DNA of 64,000 bases, from assembly GCA_041675085.1 (NCBI GenBank), contig JBAYUN010000002.1, forward strand, positions 15,967 through 79,966, in the 5' to 3' direction. This document shows positions 535 through 53,294 of the stretch, one piece after another. The translations under genes were made by a program, and so were the position numbers. How positions within the stretch are numbered: position 1 is the first letter of the stretch; every line of letters starts with the position of its first letter. The stretch comes from Minisyncoccota bacterium. Its GTDB lineage: Bacteria > Patescibacteriota > Minisyncoccia > Phycocordibacterales > UBA9973. The notes beneath the pieces were generated by a model. The model was not told the origin of the DNA, did no database searches, and saw nothing but the letters and a program-made list of their open reading frames with translations.

Positions 535-2364
535 TTATCTAACCTGCCAATCTGGATTTTCCTTTATTTTATTAGTTATATTATCCATTATACTATTTAC
601 TTCTAGGTCTGTTAGGGTCTTTTCATAAGACTGGAAAACCATACGAAAACCATACGAAGTCTTCCCTTCTTTCGTAAATGAATCGAACATAATAGGACCT
701 TTGACGCAAAGCTCTGTAATATTCTCTTTTAGCAAATTCTCTAAGTTTTGACCACCTTCAGTCTCAGGTACCCAGACAGCAATATCGCGAGTAATGAATG
801 GAAAGAGTGACCACATTGCAAAAGAAGAAGGAATATGCTTTTTCTGAATGTCTGGTTGAGGCGAAGACGACCCGAGGACGTCAAGAAAAGTATTTTCTTC
901 TTCTTTTACTCTTTCTTTAATAAAATCACTTAAGGACATCTCTGTAATATTTTTACGATCTCCAAAAGCTACATGCAAAACTTCAACATTATCTTTAAAA
1001 ACTTTTCCGATTTCAAAAACCTTCACTTCTTTAATATTTAAAAGTGGTAGATTGTTTTGATTTAATTTTATACTTTCTTTTAATCCATCAGACAGATTTG
1101 TTCTTAAGAATTTTTTATCTGATGCACTAGCTAGAACTTCTACTTCCCCATTTGAAGTAAAAGAATAAGTCATAACTTCTGAATATCCCAAGCTGAGCAA
1201 AGTAGAACGAGCTTGCAAAGAATTAAAATACACTTCATTCTTTTGAGGAACAAATGCTAACTTTGGAATTTTAGGATTCAATTTATCATAACCGAGAATT
1301 CTACCAACTTCTTCTGCCATATCTTCTTCGAGATTTAAATCCAGACGCATTGATGGAATATTAATTTCATAGATAGAATCTTTTACGGTAAATTCAAAGT
1401 GATATCTTTCCAGAATATTTTGCATCTCTATTTTGGCGACAGTAATACCTAATATATTTGAAATACGATCAAGGTCAAAAGATAATTTACTTTTTTCTGC
1501 TTGAATCTGATAAACATCTACCACATCTTCAAAATTAGAAAAACTATATTCCATCAAAAGCCCTGAGAGTTCAGTCATAGCTAAATCCCCTAAAGATGGA
1601 GATAAATCATTCTCAAATCTTTTAGCCGAATCAGTAAAAATCCCGATTCTGCGTGCAGTCTTGCGGACAGCGATAGGATCAAAGTTGGCAATCTCAAGTA
1701 GAATATTCTTAGTATTATTATCAACCTCAGCCACCTTGCCACCCTTCACTCCCGCAATAGCTAAAATATTTTTCTCGTCAGCTATCACTACGTCTGTACT
1801 CTCTAATTTTACTTGCTTGTTGTCGAGGGTAGTCATCTCTTCTCCAGGGAGAGCATAACGTACCACAATAGTGCCAGTTATTTTATCCAAATCAAAGGCA
1901 TGAGCTGGTTGACCTAGATTGTACATAACGATATTGGTCGCATCTACGATATTGTTAATACTACGAGCACCTACTGACTCTAAATGCTTCACAACCCATT
2001 CTGGACTAGGGACGACTTGTACATCACGCACAATACGGCCCATATAACGACGAACGTTTGGCACGTTTATCTCTATTTTTAAATTTGTATTTTTAGGTTC
2101 AGGCTTCTTGTATTTATCTAAAGAATGTACGAAAGGGATAGATAATAATGAAGCGAGCTCTCTTGCTATACCGATATGAGAAAGTAAATCATGAGCCCGA
2201 TTCGGTAAAATATTTATATCAAAAATATAATCTTTATTCTCACCTTCTCCAATTTCTTCTACTCCCTCAACTTCACAAAGATGATAAGTAAAAATATCCT
2301 CCAGAGTTTTAGGACTCGGTGCTTCGGGAATATACCATTTTAACCAGTTATAAGATATTTTCAT
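535..2364 (-). CDS. pheT: phenylalanyl-tRNA synthetase beta subunit (short form, 609 aa)
   Basis: MKISYNWLKWYIPE start typical of PheT and a B3/4-like core. It lies immediately downstream of pheS in the same orientation. It carries an in-frame GC-rich insert (see findings). Confidence 0.8.
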   Translation of the reverse strand: MKISYNWLKWYIPEAPSPKTLEDIFTYHLCEVEGVEEIGEGENKDYIFDINILPNRAHDLLSHIGIARELASLLSIPFVHSLDKYKKPEPKNTNLKIEINVPNVRRYMGRIVRDVQVVPSPEWVVKHLESVGARSINNIVDATNIVMYNLGQPAHAFDLDKITGTIVVRYALPGEEMTTLDNKQVKLESTDVVIADEKNILAIAGVKGGKVAEVDNNTKNILLEIANFDPIAVRKTARRIGIFTDSAKRFENDLSPSLGDLAMTELSGLLMEYSFSNFEDVVDVYQIQAEKSKLSFDLDRISNILGITVAKIEMQNILERYHFEFTVKDSIYEINIPSMRLDLNLEEDMAEEVGRILGYDKLNPKIPKLAFVPQKNEVYFNSLQARSTLLSLGYSEVMTYSFTSNGEVEVLASASDKKFLRTNLSDGLKESIKLNQNNLPLLNIKEVKVFEIGKVFKDNVEVLHVAFGDRKNITEMSLSDFIKERVKEEENTFLDVLGSSSPQPDIQKKHIPSSFAMWSLFPFITRDIAVWVPETEGGQNLENLLKENITELCVKGPIMFDSFTKEGKTSYGFRMVFQSYEKTLTDLEVNSIMDNITNKIKENPDWQVR

Positions 2365-8900: not shown

Positions 8901-9003
8901 CTTCCAGAGAATCCACAGCATCCTTCTGAGCTTTATTTAATTTCTTATATTGAGTCTCGAACAATAAATTAGACATACTTGTATTATAACTCAAAGAGAC
9001 CAT
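5983..9003 (-). CDS. UvrD/PcrA-family SF1 helicase fused to a C-terminal PD-(D/E)xK Cas4/AddB-like Fe-S nuclease domain
   Basis: Helicase motifs: I AGPGTGKT, Ia LTFTRSGVKAM, II VLVDEHQD, VVGDDRQLIYGFSGA and VENYRST. C-terminal nuclease: D…DFKTGK…RQLAMYAYL (QxxxY) plus four Cys (ECPW … CNFKPWGGKSEECEYC). Confidence 0.75.
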   Translation of the reverse strand: MVSLSYNTSMSNLLFETQYKKLNKAQKDAVDSLEGPVMVVAGPGTGKTQILALRIGNILKQTQVGADGVLCLTFTRSGVKAMKDRLLEYIGPVANDVRISTFHSFAIEIVEKHYALLDFDTMPKLLEEDEAVFLCDEILEQNQWSYLRPRGNPSMYFNDLKSLISILKRERLTPLEFLSQVEKDIKFLESDPDSISTRGESKGKLKKEIEKKIEGLEKTKEVVLFYEMYEDKKKAMSLMDYDDVLEYVVTLVEGYEDVRAEIKENYLYVLVDEHQDSSGVQNNFLQGVWGGEESPNIFVVGDDRQLIYGFSGARLSYFEEFATYFGQAKLITLVENYRSTAKILSLADNLLSSSISKEKLNSNTTGDNQIELSQYAFPRDEILGAGMYFSQKIEEGVSPKDCAILVPKNFHVRNAISILSNMGLPVSTGKSVYLFNIKQSYSFLRILNLINDPYNSVLISESLLDSTSNIEPLVAHKFLKNTKPDKITIDELISSGKDQGLFSEDGDIVKWGLKLKKWVDSRNEKISMLVSLIGNELLIDNSSTHSELLENVEVVRTFIHASLLFEQKNINPSLADFLNYFKRLESYGHNLSLATFGGNEGIEVMTLHKSKGLEYKHVWIAHMNEEVLMSEKRNNFSLPEKIKEHIKERDIESAKRELYVAITRAREFCNISYATENYNGSGLELASIIQNLPDLHFIKKNKEETESEILNNKIFGPKIFTTAIEKVEGDILEEVQTFVKENYKDIKITVSMLNNFYECPWKWYFRNFLKLPEVKGTSLALGSAVHGTIEFILKNKALPQTEDIKVAITRELNKEGVQDGIELARLEKVSYDMVNNWIEKYYKILEADYVSERSVQFRDKEFADLLMYGKLDLTERDIRGNISVTDFKTGKPKTKNEIEKVDEEGRMSAYMRQLAMYAYLIDGAEGGKKVESLRLMFLEAEDGDKNALYSTYIDNEKIDLLKRDISDYVTNLENGAWVNMKCNFKPWGGKSEECEYCKLSKSLILK

Positions 9004-9746
9004 TTTCCAACCTTGGTTCTTTTAATAGAAAAAGCTAGACTTGGTATAGATATCATATCTCCTAAGTCGTTGGCTATCGTGCGGACATACGTACCACTCG
9101 TGACTTTAGTACTAAAACTTGCGACGAAAAAATGCTTTGGCATTTTTTCGTCGCAAAGCTTCTTCTGCCAGATTTTTAAAATTTCCTTTTGACGAAAATC
9201 TCCATTCACTTTATTAACCCTAGTCTCTATGTTTTCCAAAAGTGTTTTACTCGAGATTTTTCGTAAATTTAAATATTTTAAACTCTTGATCATTACTTCT
9301 CTCTCGGGAATCTCTACAACTTTATTCTCACGTGCGTAAGTAAATAGAGGTTTGCCTTCTACGGTTTTTGAAGAATATAGTGGGTATTTTTGGACTATTT
9401 TTCCTTTAAAATGTTTTAGATTTTTCTTAATCAATTTTTCTAAATCTTCTTTCTTATGCATAGGGTAACCCTCTGTAATAACCTTACCTAGAATATCATA
9501 AGTATCAGTCTTGAAACCAAATAAAACTTCAAAATCATATTCTTTATCGAGATTCAAATACTTCTGCTTATTCTTGCATTCTTCTCCAGCTAACAATAGT
9601 AATAACCCCGAAGCCAAAGGGTCAAGTCGCCCCGCATAAGTCATCGGCACATCTAGCGGTATTTTATTCTTAACGCGAAACACCTCTAGGGATTCTAGGG
9701 GTGTTTGACCTTCTTTTTTATTTACTAAATAAAACTTTTTTTGCAT
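8991..9746 (-). CDS. truB: tRNA pseudouridine(55) synthase
   Basis: GRLDPLASGLLLLL catalytic Asp motif and overall TruB-like sequence. Confidence 0.8.
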   Translation of the reverse strand: MQKKFYLVNKKEGQTPLESLEVFRVKNKIPLDVPMTYAGRLDPLASGLLLLLAGEECKNKQKYLNLDKEYDFEVLFGFKTDTYDILGKVITEGYPMHKKEDLEKLIKKNLKHFKGKIVQKYPLYSSKTVEGKPLFTYARENKVVEIPEREVMIKSLKYLNLRKISSKTLLENIETRVNKVNGDFRQKEILKIWQKKLCDEKMPKHFFVASFSTKVTSGTYVRTIANDLGDMISIPSLAFSIKRTKVGKWSL

Positions 9747-10571: not shown

Positions 10572-12671
<2,100 letters not shown>

Positions 12672-28154: not shown

Positions 28155-28244
28155 TGGCGGAGCCGGAGGGATTCGAACCCTCGAGACCTTTTACAGCCTG
28201 CCTCTTTAGCAAAGAGGTAGATTAGACCACTCTCCCACGGCTCC
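28155..28244 (-). tRNA. tRNA-Ser(GCU)
   Basis: The reverse complement gives GGAGCCG…anticodon stem CCTCT/AGAGG with loop TTGCTAA…long variable arm…GGGTTCGAATCCC…CGGCTCC-G-CCA. CCA is encoded. Confidence 0.85.
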
Positions 28245-28310: not shown

Positions 28311-28397
28311 GGAGAGATGGATGAGTGGTTTAAATCAACGGTTTACTAAACCGTCGTCCCTTAAACAGGACCGCGAGTTCGAATCTCGCTCTCTCCG
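28311..28397 (+). tRNA. Ser-type tRNA (long variable arm, discriminator G) with apparent anticodon ACU
   Basis: Acceptor GGAGAGA/TCTCTCC. D-arm GAT…ATC. Anticodon stem ACGGT/ACCGT with loop TTACTAA. Variable arm GTCC…GGAC. T-arm GCGAG-TTCGAAT-CTCGC. The anticodon reading is non-canonical (see findings). Confidence 0.6.
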
Positions 28398-28408
28398 CAG
28401 AGACAATA

Positions 28409-47774: not shown

Positions 47775-50700
47775 TTATTTTTGTATTTTAATTTTAAATA
47801 CTAATTCCCCTACTTTTACTTCTATTCCGTCATTTGACTCAAAAGAAATCTCGCGAATACCTGCCACTTTTTTGAAATCATCTTCAAATTTCTTAACTAT
47901 ATTTTCTCCTGTACTATCTGTCTCAATAAATAAAGTTATCATATCACTAGGTATCAATCCTTCTTTTTTGCGAGAATCTTGTATAGAACGTAAAAATTCA
48001 CGATACAATCCTTCTTCCTTTAATTCTGAAGTTATATTTATATCCAAATTAATTTCTTCTCCGAATAAAATTGCTTTGACATTCAATTCATCTTTTATAA
48101 TCTCTAAAAATTCAGCATTCAAATCTTTATTGGTAACAGTAAAAGAAGCAAGTGGTTGACGTACTGGTAGATTATTTTTCTGACGCATTTGTAAGCCAGT
48201 AGAAACTAAATCTCTAACTATTTGCATCTTCTCTATAACCTCAACACTAGAACCTAAAACCTGACCTGTAGGCCACTCTGCCAAATGCACACTTTCTGCG
48301 TCTGCATTATTTCTAAGTTTTAACCAAATATCTTCAGAAGCAAAAGGAGTGAATGGAGCCATGATTTTTACCAAATTCTTCAACACAAAATACAAAGTTT
48401 GTTTTGCTTCCATATCTCCATCTTTAATCCTGTCTCTATTTCGACGTAAATACCAAGTAGAAAGATCTCCGATAAAATCTCGCAACGCACGAGCTGGTTC
48501 TAAAACTTTATAATTATCTAACTCTAAAGTTGAGAGTTCTACCAATTCACCAAGCTTCGCTAAAATCCATTGATCCAAAATATTTGCACTTTGAGTAAAT
48601 TCATTCTTCTCTAAGTCACGGTCTCTATAAAGTTCATAAAAAGCGAGCACGTTATAAAGAAGTCCGAAAACCTGACTGTGTAGTATAGCTACAGTCTTCT
48701 CATCAAAGTTCTTGCTCTCGCCTGGTTGATTCACTGAGTACATCCAGAGACGCAAAGTATCGACTCCGTATTTCTCTATCATAGAAAAGGGTTCAACGAT
48801 ATTACCTTGAGATTTACTCATCTTTTTACCTTTAGCATCAAGTAAATGCCCGAGACAGATAACGTTTTTATAAGCCTTACCGCGACCCATCAAAGTCCCT
48901 ACTGCGTGAAGCGTATAGAACCATCCTCTTGTCTGATCGATAGCTTCTGAAATATAATCCGCCGGATAACCTACTCCTTCGATACGTTCTTTGTTCTCAA
49001 AAGGATAATGATCCTGAGCGAAAGGCATAGCTCCACTATCAAACCACACGTCCATAACGTCTTTGATTCTCTTATATTCTTTACCGTCACGTTCCAAGAC
49101 CACCTCGTCAACATAAGGACGATGCAAATCTAGAGCAAACTTTTCATCATGAGGAAAAGGCACAAAGTCCAAAGTACTGAATTCTGAATTCGCTAGATAA
49201 TGAAAATCTTTTTTAGAATTAATTAATTCTAAAGTCTCAGCTAGTGATAAATTCTCCGATCCAGAATACATAAGCCAAGCTGGGCCACCGTGAGTCACAA
49301 ATAAAATATTCTTATCTTGATACTTGTTTTCTATATCAAAAAGAAAATCCATAACTCGAGTTTGCACATCTTTGTATGATTCATCACCCTGATTTTTCTT
49401 ATCAAAGTTCTCTAAAGTCTTTGGATAATCTTTATGATAATCGTCCCAGTTTTTACCTTCATAAGAAAGCACTTGCATCTCACCTATTCGTACATCGGTC
49501 AAAATATCTTCTTCTTTAAGATTCAATACTGTCGCAATAATCTTTGAAGTCTCAAGAGTACGATAATAAGGTGAACTTATAATCAAATCAATATTTTTAT
49601 CTTTTAAGGATTCAGCCGAAACACGAGTAGCTTCTTTGCCTAAATCTGTGAGAATACTTCCCTTTTCTATTTTTGTACTGACTATGTTTTTAGTATTATT
49701 TTCTGTCTGACCATGACGCATTACAAAATATTTATTATTACTTTTTTTAGTATATTTTTTTAGAGTCGCGATACTATCTACAACAAGAGTCTCTTTGTCT
49801 TCTGAGACCCAAATAGGAAGCGGAGTTCCCCAATATCTTTCGCGAGAAATAGCCCAGTCTTTTATACCCGCGAGCCATTCTCCAAAACGCCCTTCCCTAG
49901 TATGCAAAGGTTCCCAGTTGATAGTCTTGTTCTCTTCTATCATTCTCTCTTTGATATTTTTGTCAGTCATGCGAATATACCAAGAATCCCGCGCATAATA
50001 AATCAGTGCGGTTTTGCAACGCCAACAATGAGGATAAGAGTGCTCGTAAAGTTCTTTGTGAAAAAATAGATTCTTCTCTTGCAAATATTTAATAATATCT
50101 ACGTCGAGAGTCGGCTTGCCACTCTCGTCTTTTTCTTTTACAAAACGACCACTCAAGAAATCCATACCTTGAATAAATTTACCTTCGAGGTTCACCACAT
50201 GATGCTTTGGTAGTCCTATCTCTGTACCTAGATCAAAGTCATCTGCTCCATACATCACCGCAGTATGTACAACTCCAGTACCGTCTTCTGTGGTCACGAA
50301 ATCTGCTCCGTAAACTTTGAAAGCTTTTTCTAGTTTTGGTTTTTCACTATCTGAGATAGTACTTTCTAGATAAGGGAAAAGTGGTTCGTATTCTAGACCA
50401 ACAAGTTCAGAGCCTTTGAATTTTTCTATAATCTCAAAACCTTCTCCTAAAAGAGATATTCTAGCTTCTGCCAAAATAAAAAAATCTTCACCTTTCTTAA
50501 CTTTCACATAATCTATATCTTTCCCTACAGCTAGAGCCACGTTACCAGGTAAAGTCCAAGGAGTTGTAGTCCAAGCGAGGATAAAAGTATTAACAAAAAT
50601 ATTTTCCTGTTCGGGTCTCTCGCAGGCTGACGAGCCGAGAGTGAGCGCTGAGCCAGCAGGCTCAGACAGCGACCCGACAGGAATATTATTTTTGTTTTTT

Positions 50701-51335
50701 AATTTAAACTTCACATACAAAGACAAGTCTTTCACATCTTCATAGCCTTGCGCGAGTTCATGAGAAGACAAAGTCGTCCCGCAACGAGGACACCAAGGCA
50801 CAACTTTATAATCTTTATAAATTAATTTTTGCTCATCTATTTTACCGACAACATTCCAAAGAGATTCAATATAATTATTCTCATAAGTTGCATAAGGATT
50901 TTCTTGATCTACCCAATACCCTATTCTCTTTGTAAAAGTATTCCAAAATTCTAAATATTCCCAAACGCTTTCTTTGCATTCACGATTGAACTTTGCGATA
51001 CCGTATTCTTCAATAGCTTTTTTAGAGTTTAGTCCGAGTTTCTTCTCTACTTGCAACTCTACAGGCAATCCGTGAGTGTCCCAACCTCCTTTGCGGCGCA
51101 CATAAAAACCTCGCATAGTTTTATATCGAGGGATCACATCTTTAAAAGCTCGAGCTTCGAGGTGATGAATTCCAGGTTTACCGTTGGCAGTAGGAGGACC
51201 TTCGTAAAATACGAATTCCTTTTCTCCTGCCCTACTTTGCATAGATTTTTGAAAGATTTGATTCTGTTCCCAGAACTCTAAAACTTTCTCTTCTCGCAAT
51301 GCACTTTCACTTTTTTGATTTTTATTTTCTTCCAT
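47775..51335 (-). CDS. ileS: isoleucyl-tRNA synthetase carrying an inserted histidine phosphatase (PGAM-like) domain
   Basis: Class I motifs PGIHHLE (HIGH-like), WTTTPWTLP, DVWFDSG and KMSKSQGN. The internal domain of about 210 aa has RHGQTENN, IISSPYYRTLETS and ILFVTHGG histidine-phosphatase signatures. 1186 aa with no stop codons. Confidence 0.85.
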   Translation of the reverse strand: MEENKNQKSESALREEKVLEFWEQNQIFQKSMQSRAGEKEFVFYEGPPTANGKPGIHHLEARAFKDVIPRYKTMRGFYVRRKGGWDTHGLPVELQVEKKLGLNSKKAIEEYGIAKFNRECKESVWEYLEFWNTFTKRIGYWVDQENPYATYENNYIESLWNVVGKIDEQKLIYKDYKVVPWCPRCGTTLSSHELAQGYEDVKDLSLYVKFKLKNKNNIPVGSLSEPAGSALTLGSSACERPEQENIFVNTFILAWTTTPWTLPGNVALAVGKDIDYVKVKKGEDFFILAEARISLLGEGFEIIEKFKGSELVGLEYEPLFPYLESTISDSEKPKLEKAFKVYGADFVTTEDGTGVVHTAVMYGADDFDLGTEIGLPKHHVVNLEGKFIQGMDFLSGRFVKEKDESGKPTLDVDIIKYLQEKNLFFHKELYEHSYPHCWRCKTALIYYARDSWYIRMTDKNIKERMIEENKTINWEPLHTREGRFGEWLAGIKDWAISRERYWGTPLPIWVSEDKETLVVDSIATLKKYTKKSNNKYFVMRHGQTENNTKNIVSTKIEKGSILTDLGKEATRVSAESLKDKNIDLIISSPYYRTLETSKIIATVLNLKEEDILTDVRIGEMQVLSYEGKNWDDYHKDYPKTLENFDKKNQGDESYKDVQTRVMDFLFDIENKYQDKNILFVTHGGPAWLMYSGSENLSLAETLELINSKKDFHYLANSEFSTLDFVPFPHDEKFALDLHRPYVDEVVLERDGKEYKRIKDVMDVWFDSGAMPFAQDHYPFENKERIEGVGYPADYISEAIDQTRGWFYTLHAVGTLMGRGKAYKNVICLGHLLDAKGKKMSKSQGNIVEPFSMIEKYGVDTLRLWMYSVNQPGESKNFDEKTVAILHSQVFGLLYNVLAFYELYRDRDLEKNEFTQSANILDQWILAKLGELVELSTLELDNYKVLEPARALRDFIGDLSTWYLRRNRDRIKDGDMEAKQTLYFVLKNLVKIMAPFTPFASEDIWLKLRNNADAESVHLAEWPTGQVLGSSVEVIEKMQIVRDLVSTGLQMRQKNNLPVRQPLASFTVTNKDLNAEFLEIIKDELNVKAILFGEEINLDINITSELKEEGLYREFLRSIQDSRKKEGLIPSDMITLFIETDSTGENIVKKFEDDFKKVAGIREISFESNDGIEVKVGELVFKIKIQK

Positions 51336-51521: not shown

Positions 51522-53294
51522 CTACATTCTCTCTGGACTTTCAATACCTAAAAGATAAAGTCCGTTTTGCATGATGCGAGTAAAGGCTACCGTGAGGGCG
51601 AGTTTGTACGGAGACTCAGAGTCTTCGGTATTTACTATTTGATTATTCCCGTAGAAATTATTGAAGTTATGAGCGAGTTCTATTAGATAATGAGTTATAT
51701 AATGTGGAGCGTATTCGTTTTGAGCGCGAGATACAATTTCTGGGAATTTGTATAATATTTTTTCAATTTCTAAAATCTCTTGTTTGTCTGTAGCAGTAGC
51801 CTCTTTGATATTTTCTCTTTTAGCTTTTTCTAAAATAGAGTTAGCGCGAGCAAAAGAATATTGCAAATACGGACCTGAATCCCCTTCGAAAGAAATAGAC
51901 TTTTCAAAATCATAAATAATATCTCCTCCGATAGCTTGACGCAAAATAGAAAACTTCAAGGCTCCTACTCCGACAGAATTCGCAACTTTTTGCTTCTCAT
52001 CATCATCCCAATCCCTGTCTTTTACTTTCTCTAGGATAGAATCTGAGACGTCTTTGATAAGAGATTCCCCAGTAATGATATTCCCTTTTCTAGAACTCAT
52101 CTTGCCTGTAGCGAACCGTAGCATGCCGTGAGTTATATGCTTCATACGGGATTCGTATTCTGGGTGAATTAGAGAAATAGCTTTTGAGACAACTTTCATA
52201 TATTCACCTTGCTCAATAGCAGTAATCACAATAGAAGTATCCGGATTTTCTTTTTCAAATTTTGTCACAGTGAGCCCTATCTCTTTGGTCTCATAAGTAG
52301 GCAAACCTTCACTATTTATGAAGACACGTGTGTGGAGTTTCGGATCATATTTCTCTCCATGGAAAACTATCGCGCCGTTAGACTCTTCAAATACTTTAGC
52401 ACCGTTCTCGCCTAAATTCTTATTCACTATCTCGCGACCACGTTCGGCCATAGCGCTCTCAAAGAAATAGTGCTTGAACTTTGTACCCAAGACTTTATAT
52501 ATAGTCTCAAAAGCTTCAAGCGTAATAACTCTACCTAACATGTAGATCTCATTTATTTTCTCGTCTGACTTTTCATAAACTTGTTTGTTGATTTTATTTA
52601 TTTCTTTTTTAATCTCCTCATCTTCTTCGTACAAATTCGAAGCGAAAGAATAACATTCACCGATATATAGAGCTTGTTCGTTTACAGACTTAGATACGTC
52701 TGGCATACCTTTTTGCAAGATTCCATAAATTGCTTTCGCTACGTGAAGCCCGACGTCACCTTGGTAGTTGGCACGGATTGTCTCGGCTCCAGAGTATTCT
52801 ACGAGACGAGAGAGGGATTCCCCTATCGCATTACTCATCAAATGCCCAATATGAAAAGGCTTGAAAGGATTCGGGTCGGTATATTCTACCATGATTATCT
52901 CACCTTCTTTTGAATTATTTTTACCAAATTTTTCATCTTCAAGAATTTCATTTAAAGAATTAATAAAGAATTTCTTAGATAAATAGAAATTAATAAATCC
53001 AGGACCCGCAACTTCTATTTGTGCAATAGATTCCTCAAGGTCGGACCTTGGGGCTTCTTTAAGGTCCGACCTTAAAAATTCAACTATTTTTTCTGCTAAT
53101 TCACGTGGATTAGTTTTACTTTCTTTCGCAAATACCATAGCTACATTCGTAGAAAAATCCCCCATTTTTAAATCAGCTGGATGCTCCACAGAAAAAGAAG
53201 CCTCGCTGTTTATATCAAGTTTTTTTAAAGCCTCTTTTATTAAATTTTCTAACTTTGTTTTTATGTTCATTTTATTTATGCCCTGTTGTGCCAA
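51522..53294 (-). CDS. argS: arginyl-tRNA synthetase
   Basis: Arg_tRNA_synt_N region …IEVAGPGFINFYL, HIGH as PFKPFHIGHL, and the C-terminal DALR domain. The start is possibly the internal MNIKTKL (about 53270). Confidence 0.85.
   Translation of the reverse strand: MAQQGINKMNIKTKLENLIKEALKKLDINSEASFSVEHPADLKMGDFSTNVAMVFAKESKTNPRELAEKIVEFLRSDLKEAPRSDLEESIAQIEVAGPGFINFYLSKKFFINSLNEILEDEKFGKNNSKEGEIIMVEYTDPNPFKPFHIGHLMSNAIGESLSRLVEYSGAETIRANYQGDVGLHVAKAIYGILQKGMPDVSKSVNEQALYIGECYSFASNLYEEDEEIKKEINKINKQVYEKSDEKINEIYMLGRVITLEAFETIYKVLGTKFKHYFFESAMAERGREIVNKNLGENGAKVFEESNGAIVFHGEKYDPKLHTRVFINSEGLPTYETKEIGLTVTKFEKENPDTSIVITAIEQGEYMKVVSKAISLIHPEYESRMKHITHGMLRFATGKMSSRKGNIITGESLIKDVSDSILEKVKDRDWDDDEKQKVANSVGVGALKFSILRQAIGGDIIYDFEKSISFEGDSGPYLQYSFARANSILEKAKRENIKEATATDKQEILEIEKILYKFPEIVSRAQNEYAPHYITHYLIELAHNFNNFYGNNQIVNTEDSESPYKLALTVAFTRIMQNGLYLLGIESPERM

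Follow-up and report, generated by a model that had tools for sequence, protein, structure and literature searches.

An in-frame palindromic DNA element in ileS of a Minisyncoccota bacterium, a probable non-autonomous mobile element of a dispersed family in Patescibacteria

The stretch of DNA considered here, referred to throughout as the window, comprises 64,000 nt from a Minisyncoccota bacterium (contig JBAYUN010000002.1, positions 15,967 to 79,966 of the forward strand) and carries on its minus strand the isoleucyl-tRNA synthetase gene ileS (47775..51335, 1186 aa). Within this gene lies a 105-nt palindromic element (50592..50696, minus strand), the sequence of which matches that quoted in a preliminary description of the locus. 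The element forms 35 in-frame, stop-free codons that encode the peptide NKNNIPVGSLSEPAGSALTLGSSACERPEQENIFV, including the stretch GSLSEPAGSALTLGSSACER, and it ends 7 residues before the WTTTPWT motif. The mean GC content of the window is 34%, and the highest value over 60 nt (0.68) falls inside the palindrome. Its predicted folds are far more stable than those of shuffled sequences: the RNA fold has an energy of -50.1 kcal/mol (z = -6.9), the DNA fold reaches z = -7.8, and none of 200 shuffles was equally stable in either case. The palindrome is genuine, and the arms, the GC peak, the fold, and the open frame bear out the preliminary description of an element with a GC-rich core and terminal inverted repeats, 35 codons long and set in frame in ileS upstream of WTTTPWT.

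The element belongs to a family designated here as type A, in which a three-way junction is formed by arms of 24-27 bp together with the asymmetric, two-hairpin core of 57 nt that they enclose. Helix P1 is made up of the arms (27 bp with a one-base bulge), P2 combines an invariant lower stem with a hypervariable 5-bp top and the loop TGCT, and P3 has the form CTCTCGGCYCGTCRGCCTGCGAGA. In the window and in the sense of the element, the 5′ arm AACAAAAATAATATTCCTGTCGGG (50673..50696, minus strand, encoding NKNNIPVG) is the P1 partner of the 3′ arm CCCGAACAGGAAAATATTTTTGTT (50592..50615, minus strand, encoding PEQENIFV). The segments 50592-50620 and 50668-50696 are 76% complementary when aligned ungapped, and 22-24 bp are paired if a 1-nt bulge is allowed. 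P2 (50645..50670, minus strand) has the top GAGCC/GGCTC, and P3 (50617..50643, minus strand, CTCTCGGCTCGTCAGCCTGCGAGAG) is the part of the type A family that is best conserved in sequence. The hairpin CTGAGCC/GGCTCAG, described previously as central, is present at 50648-50665 with 7 bp and 100% complementarity, but it does not occupy the center, since the core is asymmetric and holds two hairpins. Homology with other ileS copies indicates that the 5′ end of the element may reach 3-6 nt further. A covariance model built on 111 copies (R1) detects exactly one type A copy in the window, namely the ileS element, with 113 bits and E = 1.6e-33.

Comparison of the IleS protein with 120 homologues (P0001-P0120, 60-86% identical to the window IleS) places the element in a loop that is short in most relatives. 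The source names of these homologues mark the organism as one of the Patescibacteria of Paceibacteria/Nomurabacteria type. The short form, KFKVK(G/N)QENT(Y/F)ILAWTTTPWT, occurs in 75 of the 120, including P0002 (85% identical) and P0004 (81%). At the DNA level, filled and empty alleles differ by exactly 96 nt; thus, the reported 105 nt holds for the palindrome, but the net gain over empty alleles is 32 codons. The majority of orthologues lack the segment, as do solved IleRS structures; in the alignment with one of these, PDB 8c8w, residues 6-217 and 249-403 of the window IleS are matched and residues 218-248 are not. In a low-quality AlphaFold model of residues 1-420, the insert is unstructured (predicted local distance difference test score, pLDDT, <50) and lies between strands 202-212 and 250-256. 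Pfam assigns no domain of its own to the insert stretch, and the tRNA-synt_1 match spans it. The ileS copy is an insertion in the loop between two β-strands just before the editing-domain motif WTTTPWT.

The same loop has received a variety of other inserts. Type A is found in 8 further IleS homologues, each just 60-65% identical to the window IleS. Several homologues, including the closest relative (86%), instead carry type B, which has the core of the elements in pheT and ligA of the window, and other genomes present types C, D, and E or non-palindromic expansions at this position. Strong palindromes at the DNA level (z = -4.3 to -7.1) are seen for types B and E and for a B composite; short loops and tandem-repeat expansions are not palindromic. 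The added length is always a multiple of three and free of stops. Among more distant Patescibacteria, three IleS loops (stretches L018, L038, and L013) hold non-palindromic, tandem-repeat-like expansions; the loop therefore accepts insertions generally, whatever the element type. Elsewhere in IleS, residues 537-701 (49233-49727, minus strand) constitute a histidine phosphatase domain (His_Phos_1); this insertion is present in all 120 homologues and is thus a clade-wide domain fusion.

Type A extends well beyond ileS. A search pattern of 25 fixed core bases, for which 0 chance matches are expected in the window, matched at least 119 metagenome stretches, with 123 matches among those listed. From the latter, 111 distinct copies with full flanks were aligned (alignment A3). 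Element length ranges from 91 to 134 nt over the family, which leaves no room for a transposase gene. Almost all listed copies lie inside long open reading frames (ORFs), and merely 2-3 of the 123 are in ileS. Among the matches listed, 104 copies could be grouped into 36 host clusters, and in 19 of these the ORFs are 200 aa or longer. Pfam identifies the hosts of the listed copies as UvrD helicase (29 copies), Tgt (19, at two sites), and TsaD (15), followed by peptide deformylase (Def), UvrC, UvrB, formyltransferase (Fmt), an RluA-type pseudouridine synthase, the DnaE C-terminus, and the CCA-adding enzyme; a RecG-like protein, another class I synthetase, and IleS are hosts as well, and at least 19 host gene families are represented. 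The insertion sites adjoin highly conserved motifs (WTTTPWT, FGIVQGG, AVLYRAN, and FSFSGLK). The suggestion that the ileS element has relatives is therefore upheld, with more than 100 of them in other genes. In addition, the segment is not universal in IleS and the other IleS copies are palindromic, so that none of the findings named beforehand as speaking against an inserted element was obtained.

The reach of the family was further delimited by searches of several kinds. Model R1 recovered roughly 12-15 extra copies from 694 kb of pattern-collected loci (about 1 per 50 kb) and, in approximately 1 Mb of other Patescibacteria ileS neighbourhoods, none beyond four known ileS copies. A scan of viral contigs with the core pattern gave 0 matches, and a word search of proteins with the element peptide returned one 62-aa ORF only. 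HMMER found 0 matches to the 35-aa peptide among 1.84 billion representative proteins because the peptide is too short and its complexity too low. No report of such elements in bacteria of the candidate phyla radiation (CPR) was found in the literature searched. Type A is a large and, apparently, undescribed family of small, transposase-less palindromic repeats in Paceibacteria-type Patescibacteria (CPR).

Several individual loci deserve mention. A UvrD-like ORF (L195) contains two type A copies together with an insert, SSFSQVLGNNPQTIRK, that resembles type D, and a UvrC-like ORF (L111) combines a type A copy with an insert, FFQVLGSPAQ..DH, that resembles type B. Diverged, AT-rich type A copies (33-45% GC) occur at L178 12007-12132, L098 2258-2375, and L096 8369-8496; they retain the three helices by compensated changes and also retain the sequence of P3.

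The structure of type A is supported by covariation. Mutual information computed over the alignment without assuming any structure recovered the same pairs, and 86.2% of the cells in the 111 copies are paired, versus 67.3% after shuffling (0 of 500 shuffles as high) and 37-49% with slid partners. By helix, P2 is 99.5% paired (5 pairs changed on both sides), P3 98.1%, and the arms 77%, with 24 of 27 arm pairs changed on both sides. The five ileS copies found via the protein (the window, L004, L086, L087, and L088) illustrate this behavior. Their IleS proteins are about 60-65% identical and their cores near-identical, yet their P2 tops all differ and are all perfectly paired (GAGCC/GGCTC, GGGTC/GACCC, CCATC/GATGG, CCGTC/GACGG, and GTGCC/GGCAC), and the peptide over P2 is unconserved (EPAGS, GSADP, PSDDG, PSADG, and VPAGT). 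Third codon positions, in contrast, are invariant. Copies found by R1 alone, which are free of the bias of the search pattern, also display compensated changes in P3 (GGCC to GCGC; GACT/AGTC) and reveal an AT-rich, decayed subfamily that retains all helices.

Conservation is unevenly distributed between core and arms. Among copies at the same site, the 19 core positions outside the search pattern are 85-90% identical, a figure somewhat inflated by ascertainment, compared to 72% for the host flanks and 56-73% for the arms. The copies in ileS, tsaD, tgt, and uvrD each have site-specific arms, all of which fit the consensus GGCGGAGAAAAATCTTCTTTTGCGGGG, and the arms of orthologous copies differ at many positions, with nearly all differences compensated. 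Arm cells contain 4.1% G·T pairs and 5.5% A/C mismatches. G·T is thus no commoner than A/C, and the constraint treats both strands alike, which points to DNA as the level at which it acts, since a structure selected in a single RNA strand would be expected to accept G·U much more readily than A·C. The idea that the arms are copied from the host target was also considered, as CAGGAAAAT looks like the QEN codons of empty alleles. It was dropped for the inner ~20 nt: arms at unrelated sites fit a common consensus, and those of the ileS copies are homologous to one another. Copying may still apply to the outermost few nucleotides.

Comparison of orthologous loci documents a further property of the elements. 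The two fmt copies at L122 and L198 are 92% identical in the same sense, and the two tsaD copies at L098 and L109 are 88% identical in the same sense, yet in both pairs the flanks (74-85% identity) match solely as reverse complements. Same-sense elements between reverse-complement flanks imply that the element inverted in place. The insert amounts to 29 residues in both Fmt proteins. There is also a young subfamily with near-identical, almost perfect arms, CTGTCCGGGGAAAATTCTCTTTTTGGGGG, at unrelated and mostly non-coding loci. Three of its copies are bordered by direct repeats of 9-11 nt, with a spacing of 134-135 nt between the two repeats (L176, GGTTATCAACA; L105, TATTTAAAA; L091, TYAACAAAT), which suggests target-site duplication, possibly by a DDE-type transposase. 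At L114 (3281-3408), the left and right arms are mismatched and the right arm is that of the young subfamily, so this copy may be a recombinant of two copies.

The manner in which the elements are read is equally restricted. No stop interrupts any of the six frames of the core, but 87 of the 95 listed copies located in ORFs of 150 aa or more are read in one of two frames. Frame S0, in the same sense as in ileS, gives GSLSP..ALPLGSSACETP (pattern ..GSLSPxAxGALPLGSSACETP..; span GSLSP...ALPLGSSACETPR), and frame O2, in the opposite sense, gives GVSQADGPRGSAPRARGDSDP and reads ..RGVSQADGPRGSAPRARGDSDP... Relative to the host gene, 55 copies are in the opposite orientation and 32 in the same sense. 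Fifteen of the 19 large host clusters are restricted to S0/O2; those outside appear to us to be ORFs of odd composition or to have the copy upstream of the likely start codon. Since the outer arm pairs sum to 127, S0 and O2 exchange when the element is turned between fixed flanks, and together they amount to a single codon phase of the element ends. The S0 and O2 peptides are small and hydrophilic, and the rare frames are rich in Arg and Cys. A preference for one phase although six frames are open indicates that the element is decoded, and its product is probably a translated loop with some 32 residues, among which Gly, Ser, Ala, and Pro are abundant.

On balance, the ileS segment is likely a translated, non-autonomous mobile element of the type A family that resembles the Rickettsia palindromic elements. 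An element of this kind would spread as DNA, with the enzyme supplied in trans, and, in gene-dense genomes, only harmless, in-frame insertions in permissive surface loops would survive. After insertion, the arms and the P2 top would drift, their complementarity being kept by a process that acts on both strands; candidates are arm-to-arm conversion, template switching, or selection for folded DNA. The core would be held by a sequence-specific constraint, the simplest being recognition by a protein that mobilises or maintains the element.

Several observations weigh against this interpretation. Over all copies, flanking direct repeats are no longer than the null expectation, and the window copy shows none. 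A search of the 2.3 Mb of collected DNA with the end sequence of the young subfamily matched element copies only and yielded neither a transposase nor a longer autonomous partner that has these ends. The window holds a single type A copy. The exact 25-base pattern used for collection inflates the apparent invariance of the core, although all five protein-found ileS copies also match that pattern. The AlphaFold model is poor overall (mean pLDDT 59) and was given little weight. Translation is read from the codon phase and the absence of stops. Conservation of the core above that of the arms, together with covariation in all helices, exceeds the needs of a decaying miniature inverted-repeat transposable element (MITE), and the elements could have an additional function. 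Finally, arms specific to ileS are common to the ileS copies and imply a single origin, but the copies are phylogenetically scattered.

This last point bears on a different account, in which the elements do not transpose but spread as alleles that are taken up as DNA and recombine homologously through the highly conserved codons on either side, akin to homing without an endonuclease, with precise loss as well. In a neighbour-joining IleS tree with the loop masked, type A occupies at least 7 separate places, often beside an empty sister allele, and the window IleS is surrounded by type B, type C, and empty alleles. Such scattered copies of single origin fit allele transfer or precise loss better than repeated transposition. 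The copies in ileS, TsaD, Tgt, and UvrD each have arms of their own. The empty ileS sister alleles all retain the same 4-residue loop, the sites adjoin very conserved motifs, and alleles with an insert of any type mostly read KFR just upstream of the site, where empty alleles read KFK; this last difference could stem from co-transferred flanking sequence or from a compensating change. Allele transfer leaves unexplained, however, the occurrence of the same core in at least 19 unrelated gene families and of the near-identical-arm subfamily at unrelated loci with 9-11-nt direct repeats. It is therefore unlikely as a full explanation and would be a second mode of spread at most.

The covariation and the fold could also be taken to mean that the element functions as a structured RNA in the mRNAs that contain it, as a regulatory element, a binding site for an RNase or another protein, or a small ribozyme, with the three-way junction acting in the transcript and mobility being secondary. 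Covariation is strong in three helices, loops and junctions are invariant in sequence, the core is better conserved than the essential genes that flank it, and the fold is very stable (z = -6.9); moreover, RNase III and RNase E are known to act on MITE transcripts (PMC10969869). Against these stand the two orientations (55 opposite, 32 same), owing to which no single RNA could be active in all copies, and the arm pairs, in which G·U is not favoured over A/C. Rfam 15 yields no match at the gathering threshold near the element and none of relevance at E up to 10, the best being an unrelated snoRNA model (E = 0.52). Self-cleaving RNA in essential mRNAs would also be harmful. A hammerhead ribozyme, considered because of CUGACGA on the plus strand, was rejected: GAAA is lacking, the motif lies in a hairpin loop, and Rfam gives no match. 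A role as structured RNA is, on the whole, improbable.

A GC-rich, very stable hairpin within AT-rich coding sequence might alternatively be left out of the protein, by intron-like removal or by ribosome skipping, as in T4 gene 60 and the mitochondrial byp elements, and its design does resemble mitochondrial GC clusters and byp. A segment that is not translated would have little cause to keep a single codon phase despite six open frames or to have lengths that are always multiples of three and free of stops. Rfam, whose models include self-cleaving ribozymes and group I/II introns, finds neither an intron nor a ribozyme, and with 32-35 residues and no splicing motifs the segment is not an intein (approximately 130 residues or more, with splicing blocks). 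Removal or skipping is accordingly very improbable. The idea of an ordinary lineage-specific IleS loop that is palindromic by chance and shaped by protein selection, to which the variable length of the loop before WTTTPWT across Patescibacteria and the non-palindromic or tandem-repeat expansions of some genomes lend a certain appeal, is already refuted by the same nucleotide core in more than 100 copies, in unrelated proteins and both orientations, and by third codon positions that are invariant, in contrast to the unconserved P2 peptide.

The window contains additional palindromic elements that were initially grouped with the one in ileS. Type B elements lie in frame in pheT (818..909, minus strand, core GTCCTCGGGTCGTCTTCGCCTCAACCAGAC) and in ligA (11319..11401, minus strand), where the element adds 25 residues inside the Cys4 zinc finger compared to E. 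coli LigA. The two have a 29-nt core in common with each other and with the ileS insert of the closest relatives. The proposal that they form one family with the ileS element did not hold. R1 scores them at 11-21 bits, owing to their arms, and the cores differ, so type A is a separate family. Common to types A and B are the general architecture and a short (G)GGTCG motif. The motif TCGGGTC/GACCCGA, said to be shared by all three, does occur as one motif copy each in the ligA and pheT elements, but as a pair within 300 nt it is confined, in the window, to the ileS element.

In argS, a type F mini-palindrome of 37 nt (53037..53073, minus strand, AAGGTCGGACCTT-N11-AAGGTCCGACCTT, that is, AAGGTCNGACCTT-N11-AAGGTCNGACCTT) is likewise in frame and adds about 8 residues relative to related ArgRS. 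Type F occurs elsewhere at L086 9799-9835, L119 9280-9316, L132 490-526, L162 9342-9377, and L092 4713-4749; its hosts in other genomes are IleS, TsaD, Tgt, and a 985-aa ORF, and compensated variants exist.

Types A, B, E, and F all carry the (G)GGTCG motif at their inner left junction, a weak hint of a possible wider kinship. One may tentatively picture a superfamily of self-maintaining structured DNA elements in Paceibacteria, comprising A, B, E, F, and others with the GGGTCG junction motif, in which an enzyme would recognise P3 and the loops, place the elements in permissive loops of proteins encoded by essential genes, turn them round at their sites, and preserve the perfect pairing of their stems, with spread between species by flank recombination. 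This wider picture is doubtful as it stands. If it were true, such elements would be a major overlooked source of lineage-specific insertions in CPR proteins, and the enzyme would be of a new kind that recognises both nucleic-acid structure and sequence.

Other features of the window were noted as well. A truB-like ORF (8991..9746, minus strand) contains a perfect 36-nt palindrome (9120-9155, 16-bp stem and 4-nt loop) that encodes LCDEKMPKHFFVAS, and no second copy was found in the collected DNA. Apart from its type B element, ligA has a short second hairpin, ATCCAAGGG-ATG-CCCTTGGAT, at 11954-11974. A tRNA-Ser with the unusual anticodon ACT (28311-28398, plus strand) is located back to back with a tRNA-Ser(GCT) (28155-28244, minus strand).

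CPR genomes are tiny and gene-dense, and their mobile DNA is poorly known. The copies described here show that essential CPR enzymes, including tRNA synthetases, DNA repair helicases, and tRNA-modification enzymes, carry structured, GC-rich repeats in frame. If mobile as proposed, type A would be an independent case of "selfish DNA inside proteins" beyond Rickettsia, in an unrelated lineage with reduced genomes. It would explain many odd, lineage-specific loops of CPR proteins, a matter of consequence for annotation, alignment, phylogenetics, and structure prediction. The conserved core, compensated stems, single phase, and in-place inversion allow one to ask which enzyme recognises and moves the elements, and the copies, through their presence or absence and their orientation, could serve as markers in the strain-level population genetics of uncultured CPR bacteria.

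Among known systems, the yeast mitochondrial GC clusters and byp elements are, like type A, GC-rich hairpin mobile elements that invade coding regions of AT-rich genomes. The byp elements are skipped by the ribosome, whereas the phase preference of type A indicates translation instead. Palindromic amphipathic repeat coding elements (PARCELs), found in Mollicutes and others, form tandem arrays in surface proteins, in contrast to the single insertions of type A in enzymes. The likeness to PARCELs lies in palindromic coding DNA that can be read on either strand and is horizontally distributed (PMC2996958).

Repetitive extragenic palindromes (REPs) and the bacterial interspersed mosaic elements (BIMEs) built from them, which RAYT transposases mobilise, are, like type A, imperfect palindromes kept by compensated changes, and a dedicated enzyme recognises REPs in the form of folded DNA (PMC3733652). 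REPs measure 20-40 bp, are extragenic, and bear a GTAG/CGTC tag (PMC3733652), whereas type A measures 105-130 bp, is intragenic, and is built around a three-way junction; the 105-nt ileS element has no such tag at its ends.

MITEs offer a closer parallel. Type A has the small size, the terminal inverted repeats, and the many dispersed copies of a MITE. It further resembles MITEs and Correia elements in its predicted stable stem-loop transcripts and possibly in direct repeats that fade with age (PMC10969869). Correia elements can invert, and their transcripts are cut by RNase III (PMC10969869). Typical MITEs are AT-rich and mostly intergenic (PMC10969869), whereas type A is GC-rich in an AT-rich genome and resides almost entirely within genes; conservation is higher in its core than in the terminal repeats, and no parent insertion sequence is known.

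The Rickettsia palindromic elements (RPEs), of which there are ten families, are palindromic repeats of about 150 bp that frequently form in-frame fusions with unrelated genes and encode a conserved peptide (PMC10969869). Type A shares with them the palindromic form at roughly 100-150 bp, the lack of a transposase, the in-frame location in unrelated housekeeping genes of a reduced genome, the existence of several families, and a conserved peptide that seems compatible with the host fold (PMC10969869). Type A differs in that its best-conserved part is the asymmetric two-hairpin core rather than the ends, in its use of both orientations in one codon phase, and in a permissive loop shared with several families; in-place inversion is documented for type A. 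Type A occurs in a different phylum, the Patescibacteria, and is likened to RPEs by behavior; it is not claimed as an RPE. Type A is a member of no described family, its nearest kinds being RPEs and MITEs, and by analogy it would work like an RPE, as the CPR counterpart of the Rickettsia palindromic elements.

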